Source: Acholeplasmataceae bacterium (GTDB lineage: Bacteria > Bacillota_I > Bacilli_A > ML615J-28 > CAG-698). From it: a stretch of 64,000 bases of DNA. A program made the translations under genes and the position numbers. The notes under the pieces were generated by a model. That model saw only the letters and a program-made list of their open reading frames with translations, did not search any database and was not told the DNA's origin. Of the stretch, positions 14,803 to 56,988 are shown one piece after another; positions within the stretch are counted from its first letter, which is position 1, and every line of letters starts with the position of its first letter. The stretch spans positions 1,272-65,271 of the forward strand of contig DUNF01000058.1 of assembly GCA_012839485.1 (NCBI GenBank), in the 5' to 3' direction.

Positions 14803-15771
14803 TTGAAAATTGGTAAATTTGAACTTAAAAACAAAGTAATTATCGCTCCTTTAGCGGGATACACTAATTATTCTTATCGCAAAATTATGAGAGAATTTGG
14901 TGCAAGTCTTTGCTATACAGAAATGATTAGCGCTAAAGGTATCAACTTTAAAAACAAAAGAACTTTAGAGATGACTAAAATAGAAGAAGATGATCATTTA
15001 GTAAATATGCAGTTATTTGGTGGTACTAAAGAAGATTTAGTTAAAGCGGCGATTTACATAGATAAATATAGCGATTGTGATATTATTGATTTAAATATGG
15101 GCTGTCCTGTAAAGAAAGTTTTAAAAGCTAAATCAGGAAGTTATTTACTTAAAGATCCTGATAATATTTATGAGATTGTGAAGGCAGTTGTAGAGAGTGT
15201 ATCTAAACCAGTTACAGTTAAGATTAGACTTGGTCAAACTAAAAATACAATTAATGTACTTGAAGTTGCAAAGAAAATTGAAAAAGCAGGTGCTTCAGCT
15301 ATTTGTATTCACGGAAGAACACAAAGTGATTTATATAAAGGCAAAGCTAACTATGATTATATTAGGATAGTTAAAGAACAAGTAAAAATACCAGTAATAG
15401 CTAATGGCGATATTAAATCAATTGAAGATGCTGAGTATGTTTTAGATTACACTAAATGTGATGCAATTATGATTGGTAGAAGTAGTATTGGCAATCCTTG
15501 GTTAATCCAAAATATTGTTAATCATTTTGAAGGAAAAGAGTTATTGGAGCCAACAGCTATTGAAAGAATACAAATGGTTAAAAAACACTATGAGTTATTA
15601 AAGGATGAGATGGGCGAAAAACTTGCTATTCTTAATTTAAGGTCTTTATTTTCTCGTTATTTAAAAGGGTTGGATGTTAAAGAATATAAGTTAAGATTAA
15701 TGAAAATTACTAAAGAACAAGAAATGAATGATTTATTCAAAGAAATGGAAGTAAAGTATGAAAACAGTTAA
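14803..15771 (+). CDS. dus: tRNA-dihydrouridine synthase
   Basis: APLAGYTNYSYRKIMREFGA, DLNMGCP, IHGRT. TTG at 14803 is better spaced from AAAGGAG than the track's TTG at 14794. Confidence 0.85.
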   Translation: MKIGKFELKNKVIIAPLAGYTNYSYRKIMREFGASLCYTEMISAKGINFKNKRTLEMTKIEEDDHLVNMQLFGGTKEDLVKAAIYIDKYSDCDIIDLNMGCPVKKVLKAKSGSYLLKDPDNIYEIVKAVVESVSKPVTVKIRLGQTKNTINVLEVAKKIEKAGASAICIHGRTQSDLYKGKANYDYIRIVKEQVKIPVIANGDIKSIEDAEYVLDYTKCDAIMIGRSSIGNPWLIQNIVNHFEGKELLEPTAIERIQMVKKHYELLKDEMGEKLAILNLRSLFSRYLKGLDVKEYKLRLMKITKEQEMNDLFKEMEVKYENS

Positions 15772-17032
15772 TACAAATATTCAAAACAATGAATTATATA
15801 TAGGTAATCATTCTTTAAAAGAGTTAGCAATGAAATATAAAACTCCTTTAATGGTTTATGATGAAGAAGGGATTAAATTGAGAATCAAACTAATTAAAGA
15901 TAGTTTTAGTTCTAAAAAACTAAAGACTAAAATCATCTACGCATCAAAAGCTTTTATAGCTCCTTATTTTGCAAACATCTTAAATGAAGAAGGTTTATGT
16001 GTAGATGCAACTAGCATAAGTGATTTTAGGTTGTTGGAAAAAGTAGGTTTTCCAATGGAAAGAGTCTTCTTTCAAGGAAATAATAAGACTGAAGAAGAAC
16101 TAAAATTAGCTTTAAATTTAAAGATTAATGCTTTTATTGTTGATTCATTTTCAGAGTTAAAATTAATTGAAAAACTGGCAAAAGCAAAAGTAGATACTTA
16201 CTTTAGAATAAATCCTTATGTTAAGGTAGATAGCCATAAACATATTCAAACTGCCAATTTAGATTCTAAGTTTGGAGAAGGTATAGATGATGTTGTTTGG
16301 GATAAAATAATTGAGTTTTATAATAATTCTAAGTATGTAGTTTTAAAAGGACTTCAAGTTCACTTAGGTTCACAAATTAAAGAAATAGATCCTTATTTAG
16401 AAGCAATAGATAAAATTTCTGATTTTAAAACAAAATTAGAGCAAAAGTTAAAATATAAAATCAAAGCTTTTGATTTAGGTGGAGGTTTTGGGGTTAAGTA
16501 TTTAGAATCTGATAGCGAGTTTCCACTAAAAGAAGGACTGAAAAAGATTATTAAGAGATTAGAAAAAACTGATTTTGAGATAGTAGCAATTGAACCAGGA
16601 AGAAGTATTGTAGGTAGAGAAGGTGTTACTATTTACCAATGTTTGAAACTAAAACAAAGTAAGTACTATAACTATTGTTTAGTTGATGGTGGTATGGCTG
16701 ATAATATTAGGCCTGCTTTATATGATGCTAAATACAGCTTTGATTGTGTTAATAATGTAATAAGCGAGAGTAAAGAAAAGTATCAGGTTGTAGGGAAGTT
16801 TTGTGAGTCAGGAGATATTTTAGGAAAAGACATTATTTTAAGCAAACTTAAAGAAAATGATTATATAGTAACATATACAACTGGTGCTTATTGTTATGCG
16901 ATGAGTTCTAACTATAATGGAGCATTAAGGCCAGCAGTTTTGTTTGTAAGTGATAAAGGTGTTAAAGAAGCAATAAGAAGAGAAACAGTTGATGACTATT
17001 TAGCTGTGTTTAATTTTAAAGGAGAGAAATAA
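15758..17032 (+). CDS. lysA: Diaminopimelate decarboxylase (group IV PLP decarboxylase)
   Basis: TPLMVYDE, YASKAF, EPGRSIVG, CESGDILG and GAYCYAMSSNYNGALRPAV match the LysA pattern. Overlaps dus by 14 nt. Confidence 0.8.
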   Translation: MKTVNTNIQNNELYIGNHSLKELAMKYKTPLMVYDEEGIKLRIKLIKDSFSSKKLKTKIIYASKAFIAPYFANILNEEGLCVDATSISDFRLLEKVGFPMERVFFQGNNKTEEELKLALNLKINAFIVDSFSELKLIEKLAKAKVDTYFRINPYVKVDSHKHIQTANLDSKFGEGIDDVVWDKIIEFYNNSKYVVLKGLQVHLGSQIKEIDPYLEAIDKISDFKTKLEQKLKYKIKAFDLGGGFGVKYLESDSEFPLKEGLKKIIKRLEKTDFEIVAIEPGRSIVGREGVTIYQCLKLKQSKYYNYCLVDGGMADNIRPALYDAKYSFDCVNNVISESKEKYQVVGKFCESGDILGKDIILSKLKENDYIVTYTTGAYCYAMSSNYNGALRPAVLFVSDKGVKEAIRRETVDDYLAVFNFKGEK

Positions 17033-17919
17033 TGAAAGTATTTGATATTCATAGTGATTTATTATATGACTTATTTAGAGGAAAAGGTGATAATAGATTT
17101 AAAGATATTCATGTAAAGCAATATAATAATTCTGTTATTAAAGGTGCAGTTTGGACTTTATATTCACCAGATGACTTTGATTTAAAAGAAGCAGTAAATT
17201 GTGCTTTAAAGAAAATTGATTGGAATGAATTAAAAGATTTTAAAGTTATTTTAGGTTTTGAAGGCTTAAGAAATTTAGAGAAGCCAGAAGATATTCGTTA
17301 TTTCTATAATTTAGGCTTTAGGCATGCTATGCTTACTTGGAACGAGGAAAACAAATATGCGACAGGTGTTAGTGGCCCAAAAGAATCTGGGTTAAAAGAA
17401 GAAGGTAAAAAGCTTTTAGATATAATGATTGAGCTTGATATGATTATTGATACAGCTCATTTAAATAAGAAAAGTTTTTACGATGTTTTAGAATATACTA
17501 ATCATAATATTGTTTATTCTCATGGTTTAGTTTATGATATTTGTGATCATAGAAGAAACCTAGATAAAGAGCAAATGCTTGCTTTAAAGAAAGCAAATGG
17601 TTTATTTGGTTTAACGCTAGCTAAAAATTTTGTAAGTAGAAAAGAAGAAGAAAGAGATTTAGAGCATTTCTTAGATCATGTAGACTTTGCAATTGAAGTT
17701 ATGGGTATAGATAATGTTTGCTTTGGCTTTGACTTTATGGATTATTTAGATGATGATTTTGAAAATGCGATGGTTAAAGAAGTTCCCGATGCTACAAAAG
17801 CCCATCTAATACTAGAAGGAATGAAAAAAAGAGGTTATAGTAAAGAAGATATTAAAAAAGTTGCTTGGGATAATTTCTATAATCGCTATGGAAACAAATT
17901 ATATAAAAGGAGTAAATAA
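17032..17919 (+). CDS. Membrane (renal)-type dipeptidase, peptidase family M19
   Basis: FDIHSDLLYD at the N-terminus and LTWNEENKYATG, typical M19. Its ATG overlaps the lysA stop codon. Confidence 0.75.
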   Translation: MKVFDIHSDLLYDLFRGKGDNRFKDIHVKQYNNSVIKGAVWTLYSPDDFDLKEAVNCALKKIDWNELKDFKVILGFEGLRNLEKPEDIRYFYNLGFRHAMLTWNEENKYATGVSGPKESGLKEEGKKLLDIMIELDMIIDTAHLNKKSFYDVLEYTNHNIVYSHGLVYDICDHRRNLDKEQMLALKKANGLFGLTLAKNFVSRKEEERDLEHFLDHVDFAIEVMGIDNVCFGFDFMDYLDDDFENAMVKEVPDATKAHLILEGMKKRGYSKEDIKKVAWDNFYNRYGNKLYKRSK

Positions 17920-19016
17920 TGTCGAAGATTAAATATTTAGATTCATTAATGGAACAAGCATTAAAAGACGAGGTTTTTCCTGGTTGTAATTATTGTTTGA
18001 TTGAAAGTGGAAATAAGCATTTTAATTCTTTTGGGTTTAAAGCTTTAATTCCTAAAAAGGAAGAAAATGATGTTGATACTATTTATGATATGGCTTCCCT
18101 TACTAAAGTTATTGCAACTGTTACATCAATTTTAATTTTGATGGAACAAGGGAAATTAAGATTATATGATAATGTAAAACAAATATTACCAGATTTTAAA
18201 AACCCTAAAACAACTGTTTTTGATTTAATTACCCACACAGCGGGATTAAAACCGGGAATTAGTTATACAGAATATATTGGTAAACCAAAAGAACAGTTTG
18301 TAAAGGCAATTTATGAATTAGAGCCAAGTAATGAAGTCGGTGAGAAAATCATTTACTCTGATTTAGGTTTTATTTATTTAGGCTGGATTATTGAGAAAAT
18401 TAGTGGTTTAAGTTTGCCTGAATTTACTTTTAAATATCTTTTTGAGCCATTAGAAATGTATCGTACAGGTTATAATTTAAGTCCAGATCTTCATAAAACA
18501 ATCGCTCCAACTGAGGTAAGAAAAGATAGGATTGCAAATGGTCCTGTAAGAGGAGTTGTTCATGATGAGAAAGCCTATCTTTTAGGTGGTGCTTGTGGCC
18601 ATGCTGGGCTATTTTCTTGTGTGAAAGATGTATCGCATTTTATGGAAATGGTTTTAAATGATGGTGTTTATAAAGGAAAGAGAATTTTATCTAAGGCTAC
18701 AATCGATTTAATGTTTACTGAACTTGCTAGTCAAAAAGAAAATGAGACAAGTGTAATTACAGAAAAAAGGTCAGTTGGGTGGACAATTATGGGTTCTTAT
18801 CCTCAATCTGGATGCCTTGCAAGTTCAAAAACTATTATGCATACTGGCTTTACAGGAACACATTTATTTATAGATAGATATAATCAAGTCGCATTTTGCG
18901 TATTGAGTAATAGAGTTCATCCAACTAGAGAGAATAATAAGATTATTGGATGGAGAGGAAGAATCGGAAATTACGTTATAAGTCATTTTGGGAAAGGATG
19001 TAAAGATGAAGTTTAA
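17919..19016 (+). CDS. Beta-lactamase-fold serine hydrolase (class C/AmpH family; possibly AmiE/YbbE-like MurNAc-L-Ala amidase)
   Basis: SxxK motif MASLTKV and YSDLGF (YxN-like position). No signal peptide. The amidase suggestion comes only from the family and the genomic context. Confidence 0.6.
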   Translation: MSKIKYLDSLMEQALKDEVFPGCNYCLIESGNKHFNSFGFKALIPKKEENDVDTIYDMASLTKVIATVTSILILMEQGKLRLYDNVKQILPDFKNPKTTVFDLITHTAGLKPGISYTEYIGKPKEQFVKAIYELEPSNEVGEKIIYSDLGFIYLGWIIEKISGLSLPEFTFKYLFEPLEMYRTGYNLSPDLHKTIAPTEVRKDRIANGPVRGVVHDEKAYLLGGACGHAGLFSCVKDVSHFMEMVLNDGVYKGKRILSKATIDLMFTELASQKENETSVITEKRSVGWTIMGSYPQSGCLASSKTIMHTGFTGTHLFIDRYNQVAFCVLSNRVHPTRENNKIIGWRGRIGNYVISHFGKGCKDEV

Positions 19017-19983
19017 ACAATTTACTAAAGATCAATTGCCAGCTTTAATAAAGCTTTGGAATGAAAATGCAACAGGAGAAAATGGGATTTTTAAGCCTTG
19101 GACGGAAGAATTATTTACAAATAAATTCTTAAATAATCCACATTTTAAGAATGAAAGTTTAGTTTTATTATATAAAGAGAATGAGTTAATTGGGGCTGGA
19201 CAAGCTAATTTTACTAATCAAAATCCAGAAAGTCCTGGTTTTATTACGTTTGTAGTGGTAAAGAAAGAGTATCAAAGACAAGGATATGGAACGCAAATTT
19301 TAGAAAAATTAGAGCAATATTTGAAGGATAATGGCAAAACTTTTGTTCGTTGTTACTTTGGAAACCCAACAAATTTAGAATGGTATGTACCTGGATATGA
19401 TAAACATAACCATCCAGGAGCGCCAGCAGTTGAGTTTAATTCAGCTTATTATTTCCTACTTCTAAGCTATGGATACAACGCTAATGGACAGTTAGATGCT
19501 TTTCATTTAGAGCTTGAAAATTATGAGTTACCAGAGTATGTAGTTAATAAGAAAAAGGAAAATGAAAAAGATGGTTATTATATAGATTTCTTTGATGAAG
19601 AAAAAGACTATGGTTTAAAAGAATTGTTTGAAGATTTAAATAGTCCTACATGGTTTGAGGAAATTGAAAGACAAAGAAAACTTGGCAATTTAAATAAATT
19701 ATTAGTTGTAAAGAAAGATCATTGTGCTTTAGGTTTTACTGGTCCAATCTTTACTGAACCTTCAGGAAGAGGTTATCTATCAGGGGTAGGAATTCATTCA
19801 AAGGTTAGAGCAAGAGGTTTAGGTAAAACAATGTTTTGCGAGCTTTGTTTGAGGTCAAAAGAAAATGGGGCTAAATTTATGACTCTATTTACTGGTAGCG
19901 ATAATAAAGCACGTAATATTTATTTGTATGCAGGGATGAGAATTGTAAAGTCTTTCGCAATTATGAGAAAGGATTTTAAATGA
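19006..19983 (+). CDS. Tandem-GNAT acetyltransferase
   Basis: Two GNAT cores (VVVKKEYQRQGYGTQILEKLE and GIHSKVRARGLGKTMF). ATG at 19006 follows AAAGGA; the track start is 18988. Confidence 0.65.
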   Translation: MKFKQFTKDQLPALIKLWNENATGENGIFKPWTEELFTNKFLNNPHFKNESLVLLYKENELIGAGQANFTNQNPESPGFITFVVVKKEYQRQGYGTQILEKLEQYLKDNGKTFVRCYFGNPTNLEWYVPGYDKHNHPGAPAVEFNSAYYFLLLSYGYNANGQLDAFHLELENYELPEYVVNKKKENEKDGYYIDFFDEEKDYGLKELFEDLNSPTWFEEIERQRKLGNLNKLLVVKKDHCALGFTGPIFTEPSGRGYLSGVGIHSKVRARGLGKTMFCELCLRSKENGAKFMTLFTGSDNKARNIYLYAGMRIVKSFAIMRKDFK

Positions 19984-21263
19984 AAAAAATAAAAAGAGAT
20001 CTAAAAGAAGGATATGTTACTTATTTTAGAAGCGATGAGCCAGTATTGATTCCTGAAAAAATAGAAGAAAAAGATGCTTTAAGGGGAGTTTGGGTATCAA
20101 CTGTAGCTAATATTGATTTACCAAAAATGAAAGATGTAGCAAGCTATAAAAAGCATTTAGATGATATTATTAAAACAGTAAAAGAATATAAAATGAATGC
20201 AGTTATCTTTCAAGTAAGACCTACTAATGATGCTTTCTATGAATCAGAGTTAAATCCTTGGAGTGCTTATATTACTGGTGAGCAAGGAAAATATCCTGGT
20301 TTTGATGTCTTTGGTTATTTTGTAGAGAAAGCTAAAAAGGCAGGAATTGAAGTTCATGCTTGGCTTAATCCATATCGTGTTAGTCAAGTTACTTTGGATA
20401 AGTTAGAAATGACCAAAGAAAAATTTTTAGCTTCGCTTCCTGATAAAAGTTTTGCTAAGAAAAACCCACATTTAGTTATGGAAACTAGCCGTAAAGCTTT
20501 AATTTTAGACCCAGCATCAAAAGAAGTTCAAGAATTTGTAAGTGATACAGCTTTAGAGATTGCCAAAAAATATGATGTTAAAGCTATTCATATGGATGAT
20601 TATTTCTATCCATATGAAGAATATGTAGATCCTAATGAAGAGAAGAAACAATACCAAGTTGGTATTAAAAACAAATCCGATTTTAGAAGGTACAATGTAA
20701 CTTGTTTGATTAAATTGATGAAAGAAAAGTTAGATACATTAGATCGCAAAGTTGAATTTGGTATTAGTCCTTTTGGTATTTATAGAACTAATACTAAATA
20801 TTCTTCTAAAGAAAGTGCTTGGGAATATGGTTCAAACAATGATGAATCTTGTTTCAATTGTTATGAAGGCTTATATGCAGATATCTATTATTGGATGGAA
20901 AAAGGTTATATTGACTATGTAGTTCCTCAAGATTACTTTAATTTGGATTATTATAAAGTTTTAGAAGATGGCAGCGAAAAAGAAATTGTTAAGTATGCTG
21001 ATTTAGCTAAGTGGTGGAATGAAGCCTCTAAAAAAACAAAAACAAAACTTTATATCGGTATGGGTTTATATCGTATGGGTGGTACTAATCAATGGGCAAA
21101 CCCAGATGAAATCAAAAATCAATTGTTATTTAACAGCACTTTAGATTGTGTTTCTGGGGAAATTTTCTTTACTTATCACAACTTAACTGATACAGTAGAC
21201 AAATATCCTGAGGCTCAAAAGTCAATTAAAAGTCTATGGACAAAAGAAGTAAAAAGCATTTAA
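19980..21263 (+). CDS. Glycosyl hydrolase-like 10 (GHL10, YngK/YddW family) protein, no signal peptide
   Basis: LRGVWVSTVANIDLP, NAVIFQVRPTNDAFY and HAWLNPYR are characteristic of PF02638-type proteins as I recall them. Confidence 0.6.
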   Translation: MKKIKRDLKEGYVTYFRSDEPVLIPEKIEEKDALRGVWVSTVANIDLPKMKDVASYKKHLDDIIKTVKEYKMNAVIFQVRPTNDAFYESELNPWSAYITGEQGKYPGFDVFGYFVEKAKKAGIEVHAWLNPYRVSQVTLDKLEMTKEKFLASLPDKSFAKKNPHLVMETSRKALILDPASKEVQEFVSDTALEIAKKYDVKAIHMDDYFYPYEEYVDPNEEKKQYQVGIKNKSDFRRYNVTCLIKLMKEKLDTLDRKVEFGISPFGIYRTNTKYSSKESAWEYGSNNDESCFNCYEGLYADIYYWMEKGYIDYVVPQDYFNLDYYKVLEDGSEKEIVKYADLAKWWNEASKKTKTKLYIGMGLYRMGGTNQWANPDEIKNQLLFNSTLDCVSGEIFFTYHNLTDTVDKYPEAQKSIKSLWTKEVKSI

Positions 21264-21286
21264 AAAGAGCATAAAATGCTCTTTTT
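21260..21286 (+). repeat. Direct repeat copy 1: stop codon plus terminator hairpin of the GHL10 gene
   Basis: TTAAAAAGAGCATAAAATGCTCTTTTT; identical 27-mer recurs at 21945-21971. AGAGCAT/ATGCTCT stem followed by a T run. Confidence 0.9.
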
Positions 21287-21375
21287 ATTTTAGATAATTG
21301 TTGCAATTTGTAGTTGTTTGTATTACACTATTAGTAGGAAAGTAGGAATTTCCAACAACAAAAGGAGGAATAAAT

Positions 21376-21645
21376 ATGATTGTTGAATTAAGAAAAAAAG
21401 CACAGATTACATTGCCGAAGAAAATTGTAGATCAATTAAATTTGTACGAAGGTGATAAGTTTGAAATATCTGTAAAAAATGGAATTATAATGCTTGAACC
21501 TGTTGCTATTTATCCTAAAGAATATATTGATAAGTTAGCGAAAGAAATTAGGTTACTTAAAGAGGATTCAAACTATAAAGACAAAGCATTTGATAATGTT
21601 GAGGATTTAATAAAGTATTTAAAACAAAGGGATAAAAGTGTATAA
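21376..21645 (+). CDS. AbrB/MazE/SpoVT-family antitoxin
   Basis: MIVELRKKAQITLPKKIVDQLNLYEGDKFEISVKNGIIMLEPV is a SpoVT-AbrB swapped-hairpin domain. SD AAAGGAGG. Confidence 0.8.
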   Translation: MIVELRKKAQITLPKKIVDQLNLYEGDKFEISVKNGIIMLEPVAIYPKEYIDKLAKEIRLLKEDSNYKDKAFDNVEDLIKYLKQRDKSV

Positions 21646-21900
21646 ACTATTATTAACTGAAAATTTTGAAAAAGCTTTTAATGACTTAACCAAAAAAGAA
21701 CAATCGCTATTTTATAAAAAATGAGATTGTTTGTTGAAAACATACTACACCCTTCGTTTAGAACTAAAAAACTTCGAGGACAAGAAGATTTGTATGAAAG
21801 CAGTATTAATATGGATATAAGAATTATTTGGTATTTTGAAGGAGATGAATTAATTGTCCTTATTGATATTGGACATCATGATATATTAAATAAATATTAG
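21638..21900 (+). pseudogene. RelE/ParE-family toxin gene interrupted by a -1 frameshift in an A6 run
   Basis: GTG at 21638 overlaps the antitoxin end by 8 nt. Frame 1 gives MYKLLLTENFEKAFNDLTKKEQSLFYKK, then TGA at 21722. The +1 frame continues MRLFVENILHPSFRTKKLRGQEDLYESSINMDIRIIWYFEGDELIVLIDIGHHDILNKY to TAG at 21898-21900. Adding one A to the run at 21716-21721 gives an 87-aa RelE/ParE-like protein. Confidence 0.75.
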
Positions 21901-21986: not shown

Positions 21987-22015
21987 TTGAAAAAAAATGG
22001 GTTTTGTAGTATAAT
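21987..22015 (+). promoter_or_regulatory. SigA promoter of the 15.9-kb glycan-uptake operon
   Basis: TTGAAA, 17 nt, TATAAT. A 7-1-7 AT palindrome TTATATAgTATATAA follows at 22020-22034. Confidence 0.6.
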
Positions 22016-47316: not shown

Positions 47317-47327
47317 GGAGAAAATTA

Positions 47328-49949: not shown

Positions 49950-50866
49950 TGAAGAAAGCAATGATAGGTGTTGATGCTGGTGGCTCTTCAACAAAACTAG
50001 CCTTGTTTTTAGAAGATGGGACGATTGTAAAGAAACTAAAAGCTAAGGCAGGATCTAGTGCATCAGTTAAATCAGCTTTGGAGAATGTAGAAGAAGGGGT
50101 TTATAAGTTGTACGAAGAAGTTAAAAATGAGTATGACTTAAAAGCTATCGTTATTGGTTTAAGTGGACTTAAAGCTAATTCTAAAGAATCTTTAGAAAAG
50201 TTAGTTTCTAATTTAAAAGCAAAAACTAATCTTGATGTATTATTAAACCCTGATACTTTAATTGCTTTATACTCTCATTTAAAAGATGAATATGAAGAAG
50301 GAATTGTTGTTATATCTGGTACTGGTCATGCTTCTTTTGGTTTAAATAAAAATGGTAAATCAATGATGATTGGTGGCTGGGGGTATATGATTTATGAAAT
50401 CGGTAGTGCCTTTAGTGCTGTTCAAGATTTAATTATTAAATCAGTTAGGCATTATGAAGAAGAAGGTAAAGTCTATCCGTTAGCCCAATCTTTAATAAAA
50501 GCAATTGGTTTAAGCACAATAGATGACTTAAGAGTATTTATGTATCATAATGATAAAAAAGAGATTGCAAGTTATGCTTATTTAATTACTGATGGAGCTA
50601 AAGCTGGAGATAGAATAGCCTTAGAGATTTTAGATGATGCAAGTAAAGGTATTGCTAGGTCAATTAAATTACTTGTAAAGCATTTAGAATTAAAGGAAAC
50701 TGCTGTTTTGGGATTTACAGGAGAATATATTAAAAACTCTAAAATCTTACAAGAATTAGTATTAGAAAAATTACAGAAAGAGAAGATAAAGTTAAAATAT
50801 TTAGAAGGTAGTATTGACCCTATTTATGGAGCCTATTACCTAGCTAGGAAGAAAGGCAAAATATGA
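49949..50866 (+). CDS. BadF/BadG/BcrA/BcrD-type ATPase; putative GlcNAc/MurNAc kinase (MurK-like)
   Basis: IGVDAGGSSTKLALF phosphate-1 motif and VISGTGHASFG. The family includes the clostridial MurNAc/GlcNAc kinase MurK. Confidence 0.65.
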   Translation: MKKAMIGVDAGGSSTKLALFLEDGTIVKKLKAKAGSSASVKSALENVEEGVYKLYEEVKNEYDLKAIVIGLSGLKANSKESLEKLVSNLKAKTNLDVLLNPDTLIALYSHLKDEYEEGIVVISGTGHASFGLNKNGKSMMIGGWGYMIYEIGSAFSAVQDLIIKSVRHYEEEGKVYPLAQSLIKAIGLSTIDDLRVFMYHNDKKEIASYAYLITDGAKAGDRIALEILDDASKGIARSIKLLVKHLELKETAVLGFTGEYIKNSKILQELVLEKLQKEKIKLKYLEGSIDPIYGAYYLARKKGKI

Positions 50867-51993
50867 AAGTTATTGGTTTAATGAGTGGGACATCTTTAGA
50901 TGGTGTAGATGCTGCATTAGTAGAAATCAAAGGTAAAAAAGTTCAACTTTTGAATTTTGTTACTTATCCTTATCCTAAAGAGTTCAAAGCTAAACTAAAA
51001 AAGAATTTAAATAACGAACAAGCAAAATTAGAAGAAATCTGCAGTTTGAATTTTGAACTTGGAGATTATTTTGTTTACGCAATTGATGAAGTTTTAAAAG
51101 ACAAATATAGTTATGATGATATTGATTTAGTTGCAAGCCATGGTCAAACAATTTGGCATAATCCTAAAGGATTAAAAGGCCAAAGAGCATCTACCTTACA
51201 AATAGGAGAAGCAGCTGTAATTGTGGCTAAGACAAACATCACAACAGTATCTAATTTTAGAGTTAAAGATGTAGCCTTAGATGGTGAAGGTGCACCACTT
51301 GTTCCTAAAACTGACTTTTTGCTTTATCATAACAATAAGAAAAACATTGTCTTACAAAATATTGGTGGTATTGGTAACTTAACATATTTACCAAAAGATG
51401 CTAAGGAAGATGAAATTTTGGCGTTTGATACTGGCCCAGGTAATGTAATGATTGATTACTTTATGCACAAGTATTATGGCAAAGCTTATGATGAAGATGG
51501 TAAAAAAGCCTTTAAAGGAATAATTATTAAACCTTTATATGATTATTTAATGAGTGATAAATTTATAAAAAAAGCTCCACCTAAGAGTACAGGTAGAGAG
51601 CAATATAATGAAACGTTTTTTGAAAGTTTAGTTAAGAAGTTCAATTTAGACCAATATAGTAAAGAAGATGTTATTTGTACAGTTACAAATATTACAGTAG
51701 ATTCTATTGTCTATAACTATGAGAAGTACTTAAAAGAGATTGATTTAGTTGTAGTTACTGGAGGAGGATCACATAATAAATACGTAGTATCCGAGTTAGG
51801 AAAAAGACTAGGAGTTGAAGTGGTTACAGGAACTGACTACGGAATTGAAAATGATGCTAAGGAAGCTTTAAGTTTTGCTTATTTAGGATATTTAAGTTTT
51901 AACTATAAAACAGGAAACTTGAAATCAGTTACTGGAGCTAAAGAAAATACTATTTTAGGAAATATTACTTATGGAAGGTATCGCCATGGTTGA
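50863..51993 (+). CDS. anmK: Anhydro-N-acetylmuramic acid kinase
   Basis: MKVIGLMSGTSLDGVDAALVEI, SHGQTIWH, FDTGPGNVMID; 376 aa. Confidence 0.85.
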   Translation: MKVIGLMSGTSLDGVDAALVEIKGKKVQLLNFVTYPYPKEFKAKLKKNLNNEQAKLEEICSLNFELGDYFVYAIDEVLKDKYSYDDIDLVASHGQTIWHNPKGLKGQRASTLQIGEAAVIVAKTNITTVSNFRVKDVALDGEGAPLVPKTDFLLYHNNKKNIVLQNIGGIGNLTYLPKDAKEDEILAFDTGPGNVMIDYFMHKYYGKAYDEDGKKAFKGIIIKPLYDYLMSDKFIKKAPPKSTGREQYNETFFESLVKKFNLDQYSKEDVICTVTNITVDSIVYNYEKYLKEIDLVVVTGGGSHNKYVVSELGKRLGVEVVTGTDYGIENDAKEALSFAYLGYLSFNYKTGNLKSVTGAKENTILGNITYGRYRHG

Positions 51994-52897
51994 TTTAAGT
52001 AAACTAACAACAGAAAAAAGAAATAAGAATACTTATGATATTGATAGTTTAGATAGTTTAGGAATTATCAAGAAAATCAATGAAGAAGATAAACAAATTG
52101 CTTATGAAATTGAAAAGCATTTAGAAGAAATTGCTTCAGTAATTGATGATGTAGTAAAAAGTTTTCTAGAAGGTGGAAGACTTATTTATATTGGTGCTGG
52201 TACTAGTGGAAGGTTAGGGATTTTAGATGCAGTTGAATGCCCACCTACATTTAGTGTGGATTTTGAGCAAGTTCAGGGGTTGATCGCAGGGGGAGAGAGA
52301 GCATTTATCAAAGCGGTAGAAGGAGCTGAAGATAATAAAGAGTTAGCTGTAAAAGATTTAAAAGCAATTAATTTGTCTGATAAAGATACTTTAATTGGTT
52401 TAAGTGCTAGCGGTAGAACCCCTTATGTAGTTTCTGGCATAGAATATGGCAATAAAATTGGTGCCAAAACAGCTTCAATTGCAACATCTTTAAATAGTGA
52501 AATTGGTAAGATTGCGAAGAAGAAAATTGAAGTTGTAACTGGTGCTGAAGTTTTAACCGGTTCTACCAGACTAAAATCAGGAACTGCTCAGAAGATGATT
52601 TTAAATATGATCTCAACTGCTAGTATGATTCAAATGGGTAAAGTTTATGAGAACTTAATGATTGATGTTAACCCTACAAATGAAAAGTTAGTTGCAAGAG
52701 CATTGTCAATTATTCAAGATATTACAAAAGTAGAAAAAGAAGAAGCTGCTTTGAAATTAAAGCGATATAAAACAGTAAAAAAGACTATTTTTCATTTACT
52801 AACTAAGGAAGAATCTTTAGAAAAAATAGATTATTACTTAAATAAAAATCATGGACATTTACGAAAGGCAATAGCTAGTTATGGTAAAAAGTGTTGA
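51986..52897 (+). CDS. murQ: N-acetylmuramic acid 6-phosphate etherase
   Basis: LTTEKRNKNTYDID, IYIGAGTSGRLGILDAVECPPTF and TGSTRLKSGTAQKM are SIS-domain MurQ signatures. ATG at 51986 follows GGAAGG; the track start is 51971. Confidence 0.85.
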   Translation: MVDLSKLTTEKRNKNTYDIDSLDSLGIIKKINEEDKQIAYEIEKHLEEIASVIDDVVKSFLEGGRLIYIGAGTSGRLGILDAVECPPTFSVDFEQVQGLIAGGERAFIKAVEGAEDNKELAVKDLKAINLSDKDTLIGLSASGRTPYVVSGIEYGNKIGAKTASIATSLNSEIGKIAKKKIEVVTGAEVLTGSTRLKSGTAQKMILNMISTASMIQMGKVYENLMIDVNPTNEKLVARALSIIQDITKVEKEEAALKLKRYKTVKKTIFHLLTKEESLEKIDYYLNKNHGHLRKAIASYGKKC

Positions 52898-53615
52898 TTT
52901 AAAAAATGGCGATTATACTTTAAGAGGTATATATAGTAAAGGTGAAAGTGAAAAGATAGTAATTATGTTTCATGGCTATACTGGTCATAAAGTAGAACAT
53001 AATGGAATGTTTCGAAGTTTATCAAGGATTTTATTAAAAGAAGATATCTCTTCTTTAAGATTTGACTATTATGGCAATTTTGATAGTGATGGTGAGTTTA
53101 CTGATTTTACCTTTGATACACTATTTAGCGATGCTAGATGTATTATTAAATACGCTTATGATTTAGGCTATAAGGAAGTTGTTTTATTAGGCTATTCAAT
53201 GGGTGGCGCTTTAGCTTTAGCAGTTGCTCATGAAGAAGCAAGAATAAAAAAGGTAGTTGTTTGGAATCCTGCTGGTAATATTAATGAGCTTGTGAAAAGA
53301 AGATATGAGATTACTGAAAAGGATGAAAAAGGTAATACAATTACTTTAAACTTTTCTTTATCAAAAGCGATGTTTGATTCTAGTTTTAAATATAAGTGGT
53401 ATGAGCTAGCAAGTAAATATCAAGGAAAAGCTTATGTAATTAAAGGCGCTAAAGATTTAGCTGTGCCTTTGTTATATAACGATAAATATTTAGAAGTGTT
53501 AAAAAATAAGGTTTCTTTTATTATCAAAGATGGAGACCATGGTTTTGATAATAAAAAAGATCAAGAGTTATTATATAAGAAAACGATAGAATATATTAAG
53601 GAGGAAGAAAGTTGA
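52881..53615 (+). CDS. Alpha/beta-hydrolase (serine esterase/peptidase)
   Basis: Nucleophile elbow GYSMGGA, an HG oxyanion motif (MFHGYTG), and a C-terminal DGDHGF. Confidence 0.65.
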   Translation: MVKSVDLKNGDYTLRGIYSKGESEKIVIMFHGYTGHKVEHNGMFRSLSRILLKEDISSLRFDYYGNFDSDGEFTDFTFDTLFSDARCIIKYAYDLGYKEVVLLGYSMGGALALAVAHEEARIKKVVVWNPAGNINELVKRRYEITEKDEKGNTITLNFSLSKAMFDSSFKYKWYELASKYQGKAYVIKGAKDLAVPLLYNDKYLEVLKNKVSFIIKDGDHGFDNKKDQELLYKKTIEYIKEEES

Positions 53616-54400
53616 AAATTATAGTATGTATTAAACAAGTACCTGCAAGTACTGAGGTAGAAATAGATCCCATTACAGGTAACTTAATTAGAGATGGTCG
53701 AAATGCGAAGATGAATCCTTATGATTTATATGCGATTGAAACAGCTTTAAGAATTAAAGAGTTCAATGGTGCTCATGTAGCTACAATCTCAATGGGTCCA
53801 CCTTCAGCTTTAGCAGTATTGAATGAATCTTTATGGATGGGTTGTGATGATGCTACAATCATGACTGATCGTAAATTTGGGGGAGCTGATGTTGTAGCAA
53901 CTAGCTATACTTTAGCTCAAGGAATTAAATTAATAGGCGGAGCTGATTTGATTATCTGTGGTAAACAAACAACAGATGGTGATACTGCTCAAGTAGGACC
54001 GGAAATAGCTGAGAATTTAAAGATTCCTCATTTATGTTATGTAGATAAGATTATCGAAATTAAGGAGAAATCAATTGTTGTTCAAGTAGATATGGATCAT
54101 ACTGAAGAAGTATGGGAGATTGATTATCCGTGTTTAATTACGGTAAATAAAGGTATTTTCACACCAAGACTTCCTTCTTATAGAAGAAGCAAAAAGTTTA
54201 AAGATTATGAAATTAGACAAATTCATTTTAGTGATATGGTTGATCAAAATGAAGCGCATTATGGTCTAAAAGGGTCGCCAACACAAGTTGAAAGAATGTT
54301 CCCGCCAATTAAAAATACTGATAAAGAATTATGGGAAGATACTGATGAAAATTTAGCTTTGAAATTGTCTAACAAATTAAAGGAAATGAAGGTAGTATAA
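53612..54400 (+). CDS. etfB: Electron transfer flavoprotein beta subunit (LctB-like)
   Basis: MKIIVCIKQVP..., NPYDLYAIE, ICGKQTTDGDTAQVGP. TTG start 7 nt after AGGAGG. Confidence 0.85.
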   Translation: MKIIVCIKQVPASTEVEIDPITGNLIRDGRNAKMNPYDLYAIETALRIKEFNGAHVATISMGPPSALAVLNESLWMGCDDATIMTDRKFGGADVVATSYTLAQGIKLIGGADLIICGKQTTDGDTAQVGPEIAENLKIPHLCYVDKIIEIKEKSIVVQVDMDHTEEVWEIDYPCLITVNKGIFTPRLPSYRRSKKFKDYEIRQIHFSDMVDQNEAHYGLKGSPTQVERMFPPIKNTDKELWEDTDENLALKLSNKLKEMKVV

Positions 54401-54401
54401 G

Positions 54402-55604
54402 ATGGCTAAAAAAGGAATTATTGTAGTTAACAAGAGTAACGTAAATAAAGATTTAATTGAAGATTATGTTAAGAGTTGTCCTTTTAAGGCGATTGTAGCT
54501 AAAGATGGTAGTGTTGATGTTGATCAATCTGCTTGTAAGATTTGTCGAATATGTGCTAAAAAGTTTGCTGATGTTTTTAAGTTTCAAGAAATTGAAGAAG
54601 AAAAGATTAATAAAGATGAGTGGGTAGGAATTACTGTTTTTATTGAACATGATGGAAATAAAATTCACCCAGTATCATTAGAATTAATCGGGAAATCTAA
54701 AGAGCTTGCAAAGGTAACTGGACATCCAGTTTATGCTATACTTTTTAGTGATGATGCAAATAAATTTACCGACACTTTATTAGCTTATGGAGTTGATAAA
54801 GTATACTCATATGAGCATAAACTACTAGGACATTTTAACGTAGAATATTATGTAGAAGTGATGGCGGATTTTGTTTCGAAAGTGAAACCTTCAACAATCC
54901 TTTATGGTGGTACAGCAATTGGTAGAAGCTTTGCCCCAAGAGTTGCAGCAAGACTTAAGACTGGTTTGACTGCTGACTGTACAATTTTGGATATGAAAAA
55001 GAATACAGATTTAGTCCAAAATCGTCCTGCTTTTGGTGGTAACATTATGGCTGGAATTATTTGTGAGAACACAAGACCACAAATGGCTACAGTTCGTTAT
55101 AAGATCTTCAAAATGCCAGAAAAGGTTAAACCTTTTGGTGCTGTTGAAAAGATGAGTTTGAAAGATATTAAGTTTAAAACTAATATGAGATTAGTTGAAA
55201 CAAAAGAAAAGCCAAAAGAAATTGATATTTCTGAGGCAGATACAATCGTATGTATTGGGAAACCATTTAAAACTAAAGAACAAATTCAAATGGCAAAAGA
55301 ATTTGCTGATTTAATTGGGGCACAACTTGCTTGTACTAGACCACTTGTAGAGGCAGGAGTTATGCCAGCTACAAGACAAATTGGCCTAAGTGGTAGAACA
55401 GTTTCGCCTAAACTTCTTGTTTGTTTGGGTATTAGTGGAGCTGTTCAATTTACTGCGGGAATGAAAGGCAGTGAAGTAGTTTTCGCTGTTAACAATGATA
55501 AAAATGCAGCTATTTTTGACTTTGTTCATTATGGTTTAGTAGGGGATATTTTTACAATACTACCTGAATTAATTAAGACTTTGAAAGGGGAAGAAGATGT
55601 ATAA
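54402..55604 (+). CDS. etfA: Electron transfer flavoprotein alpha subunit with N-terminal ferredoxin-like [4Fe-4S] domain (LctC-like)
   Basis: N-terminal Cys pattern SCPF...CKICRIC. The Etf-alpha core has GGTAIGRSFAPRVAARL, RPAFGGN and GISGAVQFTAGM. Confidence 0.8.
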   Translation: MAKKGIIVVNKSNVNKDLIEDYVKSCPFKAIVAKDGSVDVDQSACKICRICAKKFADVFKFQEIEEEKINKDEWVGITVFIEHDGNKIHPVSLELIGKSKELAKVTGHPVYAILFSDDANKFTDTLLAYGVDKVYSYEHKLLGHFNVEYYVEVMADFVSKVKPSTILYGGTAIGRSFAPRVAARLKTGLTADCTILDMKKNTDLVQNRPAFGGNIMAGIICENTRPQMATVRYKIFKMPEKVKPFGAVEKMSLKDIKFKTNMRLVETKEKPKEIDISEADTIVCIGKPFKTKEQIQMAKEFADLIGAQLACTRPLVEAGVMPATRQIGLSGRTVSPKLLVCLGISGAVQFTAGMKGSEVVFAVNNDKNAAIFDFVHYGLVGDIFTILPELIKTLKGEEDV

Positions 55605-56988
55605 AAAAGTGACAAACAAAGATGTTTTGGCTTTAGAGAAATTAATTGATAAAACAAGAGTTTTTATTTATGATGATTCAATTTCAGAATATTCAAAAGA
55701 TGAACTTGGTACTTTAATTGGTAAGCCAGAAGTGATTGTGAAAGTAGAATCGACTAAAGAAGTATCTAAAGTTGCTAAATATGCTTATGACAATAACATT
55801 CCATTAACTGTAAGAGGAAGTGGAACTGGTTTAGTTGGGGCATGTGTACCATTATATGGTGGTATTGTTTTGGATATGACTTTAATGAATAAAATTATTA
55901 ATTTAGATGAAGAAAACCAAATTTTAGAAGTTGAAGCGGGAGCATTACTAATGGATATTGCTGATTATACTAAAGCAAGAGGTTATCTATATGCTCCAGA
56001 TCCAGGCGAAAAATCGGCAACAATAGGTGGTAATATTACAACTAACGCTGGTGGTATGAGAGCCGTAAAGTATGGAGTTACTAGAGATTGGGTCCGTGCT
56101 TTAGAAGTAGTTTTAATGGATGGAACAATTTTAGAGTTTGGGAAGAAAGTTGTAAAAGATACTTCAGGTTATTCTTTGAAGAACTTAATTATTGGTAGTG
56201 AAGGGACACTAGCAATTGTAACTAAAGCTTATTTAAAGGTAGTTTCACTACCTGAAAAAAGTTTAAGTTTACTTGTTCCTTATGCTAGTTTAGAAAAAGC
56301 TATTGAACAAGTTCCGAAGATTTTGAATTCAGGAACTAATCCAACAGCAATTGAGTTTTTTACAAGAGAAGCTTTAGAGTATTCAGAGACGTTTTTAGGT
56401 AAAAAGTTCCCAGATCAAAACAGTCCTGCTTATATTTTACTTACTTTTGATGGTTCGCAAGCTGAGGTAGATGAGAATGCTAAGAAGGCGTCAGAACTAT
56501 TAATTAACAAGTTTGAAGCAGTAGATGTTTTGATTGTTGATACTGATGAAAGAAACGAAGATGTTTGGAGTGCTAGGAGTTCTTTCTTAGAAGCTATTAA
56601 AGCTTCTACACCTTTAATGGATGAGTGTGATGTAGTAGTGCCACGTTCTGAAGTGAGCGATTATATTAAATACACTTATGAGTTAGAAGAAAAGTATGGC
56701 TTAAGACTTCCTTCATTTGGCCATGCTGGTGATGGTAATTTACATATTTATATTTGTAAAGATGACTTATCAGATGAAGAATGGGAAGTGAAACTAGATC
56801 TAGTATTCCATGATTTATATAAGAGAGCTAAAGAAGTTGGTGGTTTAGTATCAGGAGAACACGGAATTGGCTATGCTAAGATGGAATATTTAAAAGAATC
56901 ATTAGGAGATGTGCAAATTAATTTAATGAGAAATATTAAAGCAGCATTCGATCCTAAAAATCTTTTAAATCCAGGAAAAATAGTGTAA
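55597..56988 (+). CDS. FAD-linked oxidase, GlcD/LctD-type (D-)lactate dehydrogenase
   Basis: VRGSGTGLVG, GGNITTNAGGMRAVKYG and GEHGIGYAK are FAD_binding_4/GlcD motifs. Overlaps etfA by 8 nt. Confidence 0.75.
   Translation: MYKKVTNKDVLALEKLIDKTRVFIYDDSISEYSKDELGTLIGKPEVIVKVESTKEVSKVAKYAYDNNIPLTVRGSGTGLVGACVPLYGGIVLDMTLMNKIINLDEENQILEVEAGALLMDIADYTKARGYLYAPDPGEKSATIGGNITTNAGGMRAVKYGVTRDWVRALEVVLMDGTILEFGKKVVKDTSGYSLKNLIIGSEGTLAIVTKAYLKVVSLPEKSLSLLVPYASLEKAIEQVPKILNSGTNPTAIEFFTREALEYSETFLGKKFPDQNSPAYILLTFDGSQAEVDENAKKASELLINKFEAVDVLIVDTDERNEDVWSARSSFLEAIKASTPLMDECDVVVPRSEVSDYIKYTYELEEKYGLRLPSFGHAGDGNLHIYICKDDLSDEEWEVKLDLVFHDLYKRAKEVGGLVSGEHGIGYAKMEYLKESLGDVQINLMRNIKAAFDPKNLLNPGKIV

Follow-up and report, generated by a model that had tools for sequence, protein, structure and literature searches.

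This locus raises the question whether a bacterium deposited as an Acholeplasmataceae bacterium is equipped to feed on the cell walls of other bacteria, and whether it would lyse these walls or collect their fragments. The stretch analysed, called the window here, comprises 64,000 nucleotides of contig DUNF01000058.1 (assembly GCA_012839485.1), has about 30% G+C and carries nearly all of its genes on the + strand. It contains an island at 15758-56988 with 28 open reading frames (ORFs), all on the + strand and tightly spaced or overlapping, together with a small remnant of a toxin-antitoxin (TA) module. An earlier interpretation (the sequence-only reading) had described this island as a contiguous 41-kb region devoted to peptidoglycan-type substrates, with layers for capture, import, cytoplasmic breakdown and by-product disposal, and as a possible signature of a bacteriolytic lifestyle. 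Nearly all of its gene calls were borne out by Pfam, NCBIfam, PDB or fold searches. The island itself is real, since five families specific for N-acetylmuramic acid (MurNAc) adjoin one another and the order is kept across contigs and species, and the four layers do form a coherent island for the catabolism of amino sugars and peptidoglycan fragments. We consider it fairly probable that this island serves to import soluble wall fragments and to dismantle them inside the cell, that is, to scavenge and not to lyse.

Unit boundaries were drawn from consensus promoter and terminator scans and from gene spacing. They suggest that three adjacent transcription units and a monocistronic gene for a binding protein make up the island:

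ffs-dusB-lysA to the GHL10 gene, + strand: unit 1, ending in a terminator-like hairpin at 21261-21287
21376-21900, + strand: TA remnant between the GHL10 and GH20-like genes
21987-22015 to 41172, + strand: long middle unit, opening with a strong promoter-like site and the GH20-like gene and closing with the second GNAT gene
41277-44462, + strand: monocistronic Big_2-SBP gene (SBP: solute-binding protein) with its own promoter-like site at 41199 and a terminator at 44480-44508
44575-45375, + strand: gene for a 266-aa membrane protein between the Big_2-SBP and NamZ units
45595-56988, + strand: 3' unit, NamZ through LctD

Proposed cytoplasmic degradation of MurNAc and stem peptides

The 3' unit encodes the following proteins (bit scores are given against the curated NCBIfam cut-off):

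45595-47316, + strand: NamZ, exo-beta-N-acetylmuramidase of the glycoside hydrolase (GH) family GH171 type (Pfam NamZ_N 1.6e-82, NamZ_C 9e-48; lipobox LVGC)
47328-49949, + strand: fusion of a NagZ-type GH3 with MupG, cytoplasmic (Pfam Glyco_hydro_3, MupG_N, MupG_C; motif KHFPGHGDTNIDSH)
49949-50866, + strand: BadF/BcrAD-type sugar kinase, MurK-like (Pfam BcrAD_BadFG; PDB 8zo3 7.9e-24)
50863-51993, + strand: AnmK, anhydro-MurNAc kinase (NF007148 442 bits vs 387; Pfam AnmK 5e-102)
51971-52897, + strand: MurQ, MurNAc-6-phosphate etherase (NF009222 398 bits vs 255; TIGR00274 370 vs 302)
52881-53615, + strand: alpha/beta-fold hydrolase (Pfam Hydrolase_4/Abhydrolase_1)
53612-56988, + strand: LctB (EtfB), LctC (EtfA) and LctD (Pfam ETF, ETF_alpha, FAD_binding_4, FAD-oxidase_C)

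With NamZ, the NagZ-MupG fusion, the MurK-like kinase, AnmK, MurQ and LctBCD, the MurNAc specificity of this operon is firm, and here the claim of peptidoglycan-type substrates holds. AnmK, MurQ, one NagZ module and the LysA and NagB proteins described below score above the curated cut-offs; NamZ and MupG were assigned by Pfam. MurQ shares 45% identity with MurQ of E. coli, and the PDB entry matched by the kinase bears the title 'N-acetylmuramic acid/N-acetylglucosamine kinase'. MupG is a 6-phospho-N-acetylmuramidase (PMC6262408); the module found here matches both of its Pfam domains (MupG_N 7.5e-51, MupG_C 5.7e-26), and the NagZ module fused to it reaches 213 bits vs 207. A second fusion of this kind closes the middle unit together with an acetyltransferase:

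37940-40219, + strand: fusion of a NagZ-type GH3 with NagB, cytoplasmic (Pfam Glyco_hydro_3 and Glucosamine_iso; motif KHFPGHGDTNVDSH)
40216-41172, + strand: tandem-GNAT acetyltransferase 2, 318 aa, GlmA-like (PDB 5kf1 1.6e-36 over the full length)

The NagB part of this fusion scores 290 bits vs 237 (nagB TIGR00502) and its NagZ part 197 bits vs 207. Both GH3 modules carry the NagZ motif K-H-[FI]-P-G-[HL]-G-x4-D-[ST]-H in the form KHFPGHGDTN[VI]DSH, and with 38% identity they are paralogues. GH3 and NagB are separate genes in the related loci L023 and L025. The structure matched by the acetyltransferase is GlmA of C. acetobutylicum, a glucosamine/glucosaminide N-acetyltransferase that acts on de-N-acetylated wall fragments.

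LctBCD is, judged by its similarities, an electron-confurcating, FAD-dependent lactate dehydrogenase complex. LctD matches the lactate dehydrogenase subunit of A. woodii (PDB 7qh2, chain 7qh2_C) with E=1e-170, the order of EtfB and EtfA is the same in both organisms, and the ferredoxin-type N-terminus of LctC is visible just as a Cys-rich stretch. The complex presumably oxidizes the D-lactate released by MurQ; this assignment to by-product disposal had already been proposed and is chemically apt. In A. woodii the lct operon serves growth on lactate and sits with a lactate permease and a racemase, whereas here it follows murQ and the gene for the alpha/beta hydrolase. The latter lies directly 3' of MurQ in low-GC relatives as well (L031-L034 and L090; 36-40% identity), and this conserved MurQ partner may be an esterase, for instance a de-O-acetylase.

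The wider distribution of these genes was surveyed by a MurQ-seeded metagenome scan, which returned 80 loci at 38-97% identity, and by tblastn on those 47 that span 8 kb or more. NamZ was found in 10 of these 47 MurQ loci, GH3 in 11, MupG in 10, AnmK in 8, a MurK-like kinase in 5, a PBP4B-like homolog near MurQ in 6 and LctBCD in one, which belongs to the same genus. An independent locus for the catabolism of wall fragments lies at 3353-19649 of L059 (Ga0063234_101), a 3.0-Mb contig with 36% GC from another organism, roughly double the length of the longest contig found for the organism of the window. Its gene order is SBP_bac_5, Asp/Glu racemase, LysA, IS110, MurR, MurQ, PBP4B-like, NamZ, NagZ, MurK-like, AnmK, tandem GNAT, PIG-L, GNAT. 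It thus resembles the island in MurQ, the PBP4B-like protein, NamZ, NagZ, the MurK-like kinase, AnmK and the tandem GNATs (with a homolog of GNAT 2 at 33% identity), with LysA, the racemase and a peptide-type SBP upstream. It differs in possessing MurR/RpiR and a PIG-L deacetylase, and within 10 kb it has no DUF5696 cassette, MupG, Lct or fusions.

Enzymes for stem peptides and further fragments are encoded in the 5' unit:

15758-17032, + strand: LysA, diaminopimelate (DAP) decarboxylase, with a 14-nt overlap with the dusB stop
17032-17919, + strand: M19-family dipeptidase, cytoplasmic, no signal peptide (Pfam Peptidase_M19 6e-60)
17919-19016, + strand: PBP4B/AmiE-like beta-lactamase-fold hydrolase, cytoplasmic (Pfam Beta-lactamase 4e-50; S-x-x-K motif, ASLTK)
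18988-19983, + strand: tandem-GNAT acetyltransferase 1 (Pfam Acetyltransf_1 in two stretches)
19980-21263, + strand: GHL10 TIM-barrel protein, 427 aa, no signal peptide (Pfam GHL10 4e-54)

LysA is assigned by TIGR01048 (382 bits vs the cut-off of 298) and by Pfam (Orn_Arg_deC_N/Orn_DAP_Arg_deC). A connection of LysA to stem-peptide disposal had been suggested before and is strengthened by L059, which has LysA near its MurQ operon, so that the association recurs independently. M19 enzymes show a preference for L-D dipeptides, and dipeptides of the L-Ala-D-Glu or D-Ala-D-Ala type are therefore the probable substrates of the M19 protein. The best NCBIfam model for the PBP4B/AmiE-like protein is PBP4B with 153 bits, which is under the cut-off, and in a full-length BLASTP alignment the protein shares 30% identity with E. 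coli PBP4B/YfeW (E=5e-41); in E. coli, yfeW is located after murQ-murP. By these similarities it is a candidate MurNAc-peptide amidase or DD-peptidase. Since no Amidase_2/3 domain was found in the island, it is also the only candidate there for a MurNAc-L-Ala amidase. The two tandem GNATs are distant paralogues (25% identity, E=5e-9). The GHL10 protein resembles the catalytic domain of Cwp19 (PDB 5oq2, 9.5e-67), a C. difficile lytic transglycosylase whose activity has been described (PMC6016235). The likeness to Cwp19, the two tandem GNATs and the homology to PBP4B/YfeW had been overlooked or under-described in the sequence-only reading.

Outside the island a further peptidase gene was detected:

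7327-8130, - strand: DppA-like D-aminopeptidase of family M55 (Pfam Peptidase_M55; NCBIfam AmiPeptDppABac 6e-43, under the cut-off)

This protein may be an accessory for D-Ala peptides and would thereby be linked to the island.

Topology and the question of lysis

Topology was assigned with a script for hydropathy and lipoboxes. Six proteins are exported or anchored: the 1086-aa SBP, the 593-aa NHL/TPR protein, the DUF5696 protein, the Big_2-SBP, NamZ and the giant protein downstream of the island. As had been noted before, every exported protein with both ends in the window is lipid- or transmembrane (TM)-anchored. No export signal was found in the two GH3 fusions, the GH20-like, GHL10 and PBP4B-like proteins or the M19 dipeptidase, and the other island proteins were classed as cytoplasmic. 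NamZ is thus the only exported protein among the recognizable glycosidases and peptidases. The reported lack of a sortase signal was confirmed, as none of the six-frame ORFs of the window contains LPXTG.

NamZ, as present in the window, is a lipoprotein with an N-terminal extension, and this extension is a variable module delimited by direct repeats:

45362-45423 and 46171-46232, + strand: 62-nt direct repeats, 89% identical, flanking an 809-nt block

The block supplies the ribosome binding site of namZ, the lipoprotein signal and a helical spacer of about 190 aa. The first repeat is a relic of the NamZ 5' end and directly follows the 266-aa gene; within the NamZ gene there is an internal ATG at 46174, preceded by AAGGAGAAGAAAGA. 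The relative L009, which is 93-96% identical to the window, has a single repeat copy at this site (10105-10225) and a NamZ of 382 aa without a signal, and in the more distant L025 NamZ is also signal-less (379 aa). In L007 (~9990-10240), from an 'Acholeplasma sp.' metagenome-assembled genome (MAG), the long NamZ is broken by a frameshift in a T-run of the signal-peptide region, which is either an assembly error or a pseudogenized export module. By these sequence comparisons the location of NamZ, at the surface or in the cytoplasm, appears to be polymorphic among close relatives. Recombination between the repeats could be the source of the two forms. The signal-less NamZ in L009 and L025 implies that fully intracellular degradation is the conserved state and that surface NamZ is an add-on.

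These observations bear on the proposal of a predatory life in which other bacteria are bound, their sacculi are lysed at the cell surface and the products are consumed, as reported for Anaeroplasma bactoclasticum. Bacteriolytic Anaeroplasma species are indeed known, and the tethering of NamZ in this strain as well as the large surface proteins (DUF5696, the NHL protein and the giant Flg_new lipoprotein) would suit such a lifestyle. Stable-isotope evidence, moreover, documents that Acholeplasma feeds on dead cells: in manure slurry, Acholeplasma was the first to assimilate killed E. coli cells carrying a 13C label (PMC4628116), which is an ecological precedent for scavenging as well. However, the ORFs of the region and of the examined flanks gave no match to GH23/24/25/73, Amidase_2/3, CHAP, NlpC/P60 or M23 domains. 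A bacteriolytic reading is unsupported, because the region encodes no secreted lysozyme, amidase or endopeptidase and hence no endo-acting wall hydrolase outside the cell. NamZ attacks peptide-free chain ends in an exo manner (PMC8054146), and its export module is dispensable, being absent from the 93-96% identical relative. The Cwp19-like enzyme has no signal peptide, and the modelled fold of DUF5696 (see below) is unlike any known muramidase, glucosaminidase or lytic transglycosylase or other wall lysin. We therefore regard a predatory function of the island as very improbable indeed; what the island more probably represents is the scavenging of soluble wall fragments.

Importers and the DUF5696 cassette

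The route by which such fragments would enter the cell leads to the middle unit, whose remaining genes are:

22055-23917, + strand: cytoplasmic GH20-like hexosaminidase that opens the middle operon and has a C-terminal extension
23910-27170, + strand: 1086-aa membrane-anchored SBP, with SBP_bac_1 at residues ~680-980 and TM residues 60-78
27173-28168 and 28168-29163, + strand: first ATP-binding cassette (ABC) permease pair (Pfam BPD_transp_1; 6-7 hydrophobic segments each)
29167-30948, + strand: exported protein of 593 aa, with a signal peptide at one end and a TM anchor at the C-terminus, weak NHL repeats and a TPR region; conserved DUF5696 partner
30948-31673, + strand: Yip1-family polytopic membrane protein (Pfam Yip1 1.2e-11); conserved DUF5696 partner
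31689-35642, + strand: DUF5696 ectoprotein, 1317 aa, with an N-terminal TM anchor; the C-terminal ~640 aa are DUF5696 (Pfam 3.6e-123)
35645-36880 and 36870-37904, + strand: second ABC permease pair (Pfam BPD_transp_1)

The GH20-like protein is recognized by Pfam (Glyco_hydro_20b, and Glyco_hydro_20 with 2.6e-16) and by PDB 6yhh (3e-11). The 1086-aa SBP, with an N-terminal ectodomain of about 600 aa, matches SBP_bac_1 (Pfam, 1.7e-21) and PDB 9h0n (4e-11); the carbohydrate-binding module that had been ascribed to it is not upheld, the match to CBM_35 being sub-threshold (E=0.0025). For the 593-aa protein, which had been called a propeller, an NHL signal is present but weak (PDB 6d69 9e-5; Pfam NHL 0.038), next to a weak Pfam TPR_2 match.

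Downstream of this unit, the Big_2-SBP is a lipoprotein of 1061 aa (lipobox LFGC) with Big_2 Ig-like domains (Pfam 7e-44). Its C-terminal 472 aa gave no Pfam or PDB sequence match. In an AlphaFold2 model based on an alignment of 24 homologs (pLDDT 88.9) they fold as a MalE-type oligosaccharide-binding protein, with Foldseek E-values of ~4e-14 to sugar SBPs, and some of the homologs have SBP_bac_1/8 matches. The name Big_2-SBP is thereby justified, and the model identifies the protein as a second, divergent MalE-type binding protein of the island. The 266-aa protein encoded after it is a polytopic membrane protein without any Pfam or NCBIfam match; L021 and L022 have DUF624 at the equivalent place. 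In total, two SBPs and two permease pairs would represent CUT1-type importers in the window. The permease pairs of the middle unit are the only importers there, and the 3' MurNAc operon has no transporter.

Eight genes of the middle unit, namely those for the giant SBP, two permeases, the NHL-like protein, Yip1, DUF5696 and two further permeases (23910-37904), form a module that is conserved in the loci L021-L026. DUF5696 is a large family: an exhaustive representative search gave 3223 representative clusters at E<=1e-3, a word-indexed homolog search gave two near-identical proteins only, and no paper mentioning the family was found in the literature searched. The structure of residues 118-1317 was modelled by AlphaFold from an alignment trimmed to 76 sequences. 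The model (pLDDT 86, pTM 0.82) shows a (beta/alpha)8 barrel with flanking beta-sandwiches. The best Foldseek matches are to GH129 (5opq 9e-26; NagBb 5wzr 3e-22), followed by GH101, GH36 galactosaminidase, GH31, GH97 and GH13. For GH129 and GH101 the E-values range from 9e-26 to 1e-12 at a probability of 1.0, and the target-normalized TM-scores from 0.24 to 0.62, with 0.56-0.62 for GH129 and 0.24-0.29 for the longer GH101 chains. Among 51 members, none matched another GH family of Pfam, and the PDB gave no sequence match; the likeness to alpha-glycosidases thus rests on the fold. A PDGSG motif, the Glu of an ETGSN motif and invariant Asn, Pro and Thr residues are conserved. On this basis DUF5696 is predicted to have an alpha-glycosidase-type fold (GH129/GH101/GH36/GH31-like).

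From all these components the following route can be proposed for the scavenging of wall fragments. Outside the cell, the 1086-aa SBP and the Big_2-SBP would capture oligosaccharides of N-acetylglucosamine (GlcNAc) and MurNAc or muropeptides, lipid-anchored NamZ would trim terminal MurNAc in this strain, and the conserved membrane trio of NHL protein, Yip1 and DUF5696 might carry out some processing step. The two CUT1-type permease pairs would import the fragments with an ATPase from elsewhere in the genome. Since the MurNAc operon encodes no transporter, we infer that the importers of the middle unit feed it. In the cytoplasm the two NagZ-type GH3 modules would remove GlcNAc, the MurK-like kinase would phosphorylate C6, and the fused MupG module would cleave MurNAc-6P-GlcNAc. 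AnmK may convert anhydro-MurNAc, stemming either from Gram-negative turnover or from the action of the signal-less Cwp19-like GHL10 protein. MurQ would then form GlcNAc-6P and D-lactate from MurNAc-6P; GlcNAc-6P would reach fructose-6-P by the fused NagB after a NagA step encoded elsewhere, and D-lactate would become pyruvate by LctBCD. MurNAc-6-P routes are present with AnmK and the MurK-like kinase. The GlmA-like tandem GNATs might re-acetylate de-N-acetylated residues, and the alpha/beta hydrolase might remove O-acetyl groups. The PBP4B/AmiE-like protein, the M19 dipeptidase and LysA would dispose of the stem peptide, the latter by converting meso-DAP to L-lysine.

Several points weigh against this route. 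No ABC ATPase is encoded in the window; a shared ATPase encoded elsewhere is usual for CUT1-type importers. MupG needs a 6-phosphorylated disaccharide, normally phosphorylated by a phosphotransferase system (PTS), yet no PTS domain is present in 15758-56988 (Pfam), so that the kinase would have to supply the 6-phosphate. No NagA/Amidohydro domain was found in the window, and neither an LD-carboxypeptidase nor a gamma-D-Glu-DAP peptidase in the region. LysA could be biosynthetic. The adjacency of MurQ and Lct occurs in one genus only (1/47 MurQ loci) and may therefore be an accident of gene order. A surface protein with GH18 and Flg_new domains, encoded upstream (see below), indicates that chitin or N-glycans may belong to the diet as well. 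The remaining points concern the cassette: DUF5696 resembles alpha-glycosidases, whereas peptidoglycan and chitin are beta-linked; L024 has the core cassette beside dockerin and GxGYxYP genes; and no surveyed DUF5696 locus outside the genus has MurQ or AnmK within 10 kb. Because DUF5696 models as an alpha-glycosidase-type fold, peptidoglycan is not established as the substrate of the middle unit. For its 19 kb, with a cassette that also occurs among unrelated neighbours, the general claim of peptidoglycan-type substrates is premature.

It is thus conceivable that the locus is a composite, in which only the flanking operons (15758-21263 and 45595-56988) serve peptidoglycan degradation, while the middle part (22055-44462) is an independent system for another polymer of GlcNAc, glucosamine or N-acetylgalactosamine, and MurNAc compounds enter via a transporter encoded elsewhere. 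Chitin or chitosan, poly-N-acetylglucosamine (PNAG) or Pel-type biofilm polysaccharide, teichoic-acid or secondary wall glycans, and host glycans are candidates. The fold of DUF5696 agrees with this, and so does the cassette itself, which is self-contained, spread over thousands of protein clusters and found with varied neighbours: in L022 it occurs with two GHL10 proteins, tandem GNAT, GH20, DUF4127 and NAGPA. The weak SBP matches point to chitobiose-type binders, the GH18 surface protein lies ~20 kb upstream of the window start, and the GH20, NagZ, NagB and GlmA-type enzymes would suit chitin or chitosan catabolism equally well. However, the MurNAc operon would then be left without its own importer, and the three units remain collinear across species. 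The Cwp19-like GHL10 protein keeps its place near the cassette in L022 and L023; in the latter the genes follow one another as in the window, namely GHL10, GH20, cassette, GH3, NagB, tandem GNAT, Big_2. Even the distant relative L025 (39% identity in DUF5696) has the cassette followed by GH3, NagB, Big_2::SBP, a 252-aa membrane protein and NamZ. We therefore judge a composite locus to be somewhat unlikely. PNAG, Pel, teichoic acid and chitin were each considered for the middle cassette, and the data spoke neither against nor in favour of them.

Conservation, host and related systems

Six metagenome contigs, independent of one another, show the same gene order, and collinearity extends to two further species, whose nucleotide identity is 85% and 93-96%. 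In L022 and L023 the cassette still lies together with GHL10, GH20 and the tandem GNAT, so that a comparison across related metagenome assemblies, as had been recommended, reveals collinearity in close species and partial conservation in distant ones. AnmK occurs with identical sequence in 92 collection blocks and FtsH in dozens of near-identical clusters; the population carrying the island is common. The closest GTDB species representatives by NamZ are 'Acholeplasma sp. AS08sgBPME_237' (91%) and 'Bacilli bacterium AMR_MDS_2243' (89%). For FtsH, no named isolate is found among the best 120 matches, and identity falls to 66-75% outside the genus.

The suggestion of an Acholeplasma-like host is correct at the level of the label, as the source MAG was deposited as an Acholeplasmataceae bacterium (proteins HHV14538 to HHV14563); most close relatives are labelled just 'Bacilli bacterium'. 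The window also coincides with part of a 1.06-Mb ENA contig, at 99.99% identity over the overlap. This leads to the possibility of ordinary self-recycling, in which a walled, reduced lineage of Bacilli burns its own turnover products like B. subtilis, S. aureus and clostridia. The cytoplasmic location of the enzymes is that of recycling pathways, and L059 carries the same core gene set with MurR; the presence of such an operon on a 3-Mb contig means that absence of a wall does not follow from the gene set. Furthermore, mraY and murG are present in 75% of the 'bioreactor group' Tenericutes genomes (PMC7301438), and nearly complete wall pathways have been reported in other environmental lineages (PMC7761423). 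Two genes upstream of the window, which flank a glycine cleavage operon (L028), also belong to this discussion:

L028 1-293, ~20 kb upstream of the window start: 760-aa Flg_new+GH18 surface protein of the chitinase or endo-beta-N-acetylglucosaminidase type
L028 5959-8043, 12-14 kb upstream of the window start: 694-aa Sulfatase-family, LtaS-like membrane protein

The LtaS-like protein would fit a walled cell. On the other side stands the deposition of the MAG as Acholeplasmataceae. In agreement with the sequence-only reading, no wall-synthesis gene was found in the ~84 kb read (the 64-kb window and ~20 kb further upstream) of a genome of at least 1.3 Mb, and wall-binding modules and LPXTG are likewise absent from this stretch. 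The island has neither anabolic recycling genes nor MurR, two elaborate surface SBPs with doubled importers resemble foraging gear, and 41 kb of such a genome would be a large outlay for housekeeping. Altogether, self-recycling appears quite improbable to us.

A broader picture, which we consider unlikely in its entirety, would be that of a truly wall-less member of the Acholeplasmataceae, abundant in anaerobic digesters, that lives partly off the peptidoglycan of others by a complete dedicated route, from glycan to fructose-6-P, from the lactyl ether to pyruvate via LctBCD and from meso-DAP to lysine via an orphan LysA. In this picture DUF5696, NHL, Yip1 and the double ABC importer would form a new, widespread envelope-glycan machine of Firmicutes, and DUF5696 would be a new GH family.

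MurQ-based catabolism of wall fragments is already known from E. coli, B. subtilis, S. aureus, clostridia and Tannerella; the version encoded here stands out by its completeness. With the murQ-murR-murP-amiE-nagZ-namZ operon (ybbI-ybbC) of B. subtilis the island shares MurQ, an Asp-His NagZ of GH3, NamZ and an AmiE/PBP4B-type protein, and both are purely catabolic, leading to GlcNAc-6-P and D-lactate. In contrast to B. subtilis, the island lacks MurR and the PTS protein MurP, relies on ABC uptake, has cytoplasmic NagZ fused to MupG and to NagB, and adds AnmK, a MurK-type kinase, GlmA-type GNATs, the Cwp19-like GHL10 protein, LctBCD and LysA. MupG and MurQ are also common to the island and the MurP-MupG-MurQ system of S. 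aureus (PMC6262408), which generates the 6-phosphate during PTS transport, whereas the island, without a PTS, has MupG fused to NagZ. Tannerella forsythia (NamZ1/2, MurT, MurK, MurQ, AmpG; PMC7670621, bioRxiv 2021.12.02.470905) likewise uses wall fragments of its neighbours with NamZ-type enzymes and MurK/MurQ. However, it is walled and scavenges mainly for its own wall, and the island is purely catabolic and has ABC importers. Spiroplasma murP-murQ (PMC4607517) is a precedent for MurNAc catabolism in wall-less Mollicutes, but this two-gene PTS route comes without glycosidases, AnmK or genes for peptide or lactate disposal. Apart from Spiroplasma murPQ, the literature search gave no paper that joins MurQ, AnmK or the etherase with Acholeplasma or other wall-less lineages.

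The combination of a BadF-type kinase with a tandem GNAT is shared with MurK/GlmA of C. acetobutylicum, to which the best matches (PDB 8zo3 and 5kf1) point; here there are two diverged GNATs in different operons within a much larger island. Gram-positive polysaccharide utilization loci have tethered multi-domain SBPs, CUT1 permeases and clustered GHs in common with the island, which differs from them in having no regulator, permease pairs interleaved with NHL, Yip1 and DUF5696, and hydrolases that are nearly all intracellular. It is the arrangement that is new: entry by ABC importers, two NagZ fusions, the AnmK/GHL10/GlmA-type additions, the adjacency of LctBCD and LysA, and the embedding of the DUF5696 cassette. 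The NagZ::MupG and NagZ::NagB fusions, MurQ followed by an electron-confurcating lactate dehydrogenase, and LysA together with stem-peptide enzymes were not found described in the literature search.

This is of interest, since peptidoglycan is a large carbon and nitrogen pool in dead microbial biomass. Anoxic peptidoglycan degraders are poorly known (PMC7511781), and the island offers a concrete gene set with which a common digester population could use wall fragments completely. If the host is wall-less, it also offers a candidate mechanism for Acholeplasma being the first to assimilate dead bacteria. DUF5696, as a large family in a conserved double-importer cassette with a predicted glycosidase fold, is a good target for enzyme discovery.

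With regard to regulation, Pfam scans of the ORFs in 15758-56988 agree with the statement that no transcriptional regulator is present apart from the TA antitoxin: a MazE/AbrB-like protein is the only one, and no other helix-turn-helix regulator was found, including the MurR/RpiR type (HTH_6/SIS) by murQ. In the island, Rfam detected neither riboswitches nor leaders, and tRNAs were likewise not found. According to Pfam and the ORF list, the TA remnant at 21376-21900 consists of this 89-aa MazE/AbrB-like protein and a truncated YafQ-like fragment of 59 aa. In L023 GHL10 lies directly beside GH20 with no TA module in between, and the remnant therefore looks inserted, decaying and outside the pathway. 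The MazE/AbrB-like protein was considered as a regulator of the island and rejected, as it pairs with the YafQ-like fragment and is missing between GHL10 and GH20 in L023.

The GC content climbs to 0.32-0.37 in places within the island. Horizontal transfer was considered and rejected; there is no case for it, since the GC-richer parts coincide with the Ala/Gly/Thr-rich ectodomains of exported proteins, and relatives keep the island in collinear order.

Three further proteins encoded in the window lie outside the island:

57152 to beyond the window end (64000), + strand: giant lipoprotein with a coiled-coil N-terminus, Big_2 and at least 12 Flg_new (Listeria-Bacteroides) repeats
4211-4969: unusual fusion of a GIY-YIG nuclease domain and a 4'-phosphopantetheinyl transferase (ACPS) domain
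544-1809: 421-aa protein with a weak GT4-type N-terminal domain and a PlsC-type acyltransferase domain

The giant Flg_new lipoprotein has 2822 aa as called on contig L006. As for the 421-aa GT4/PlsC protein, one could speculate on a role in the synthesis of Acholeplasma-type acylated glycolipids.

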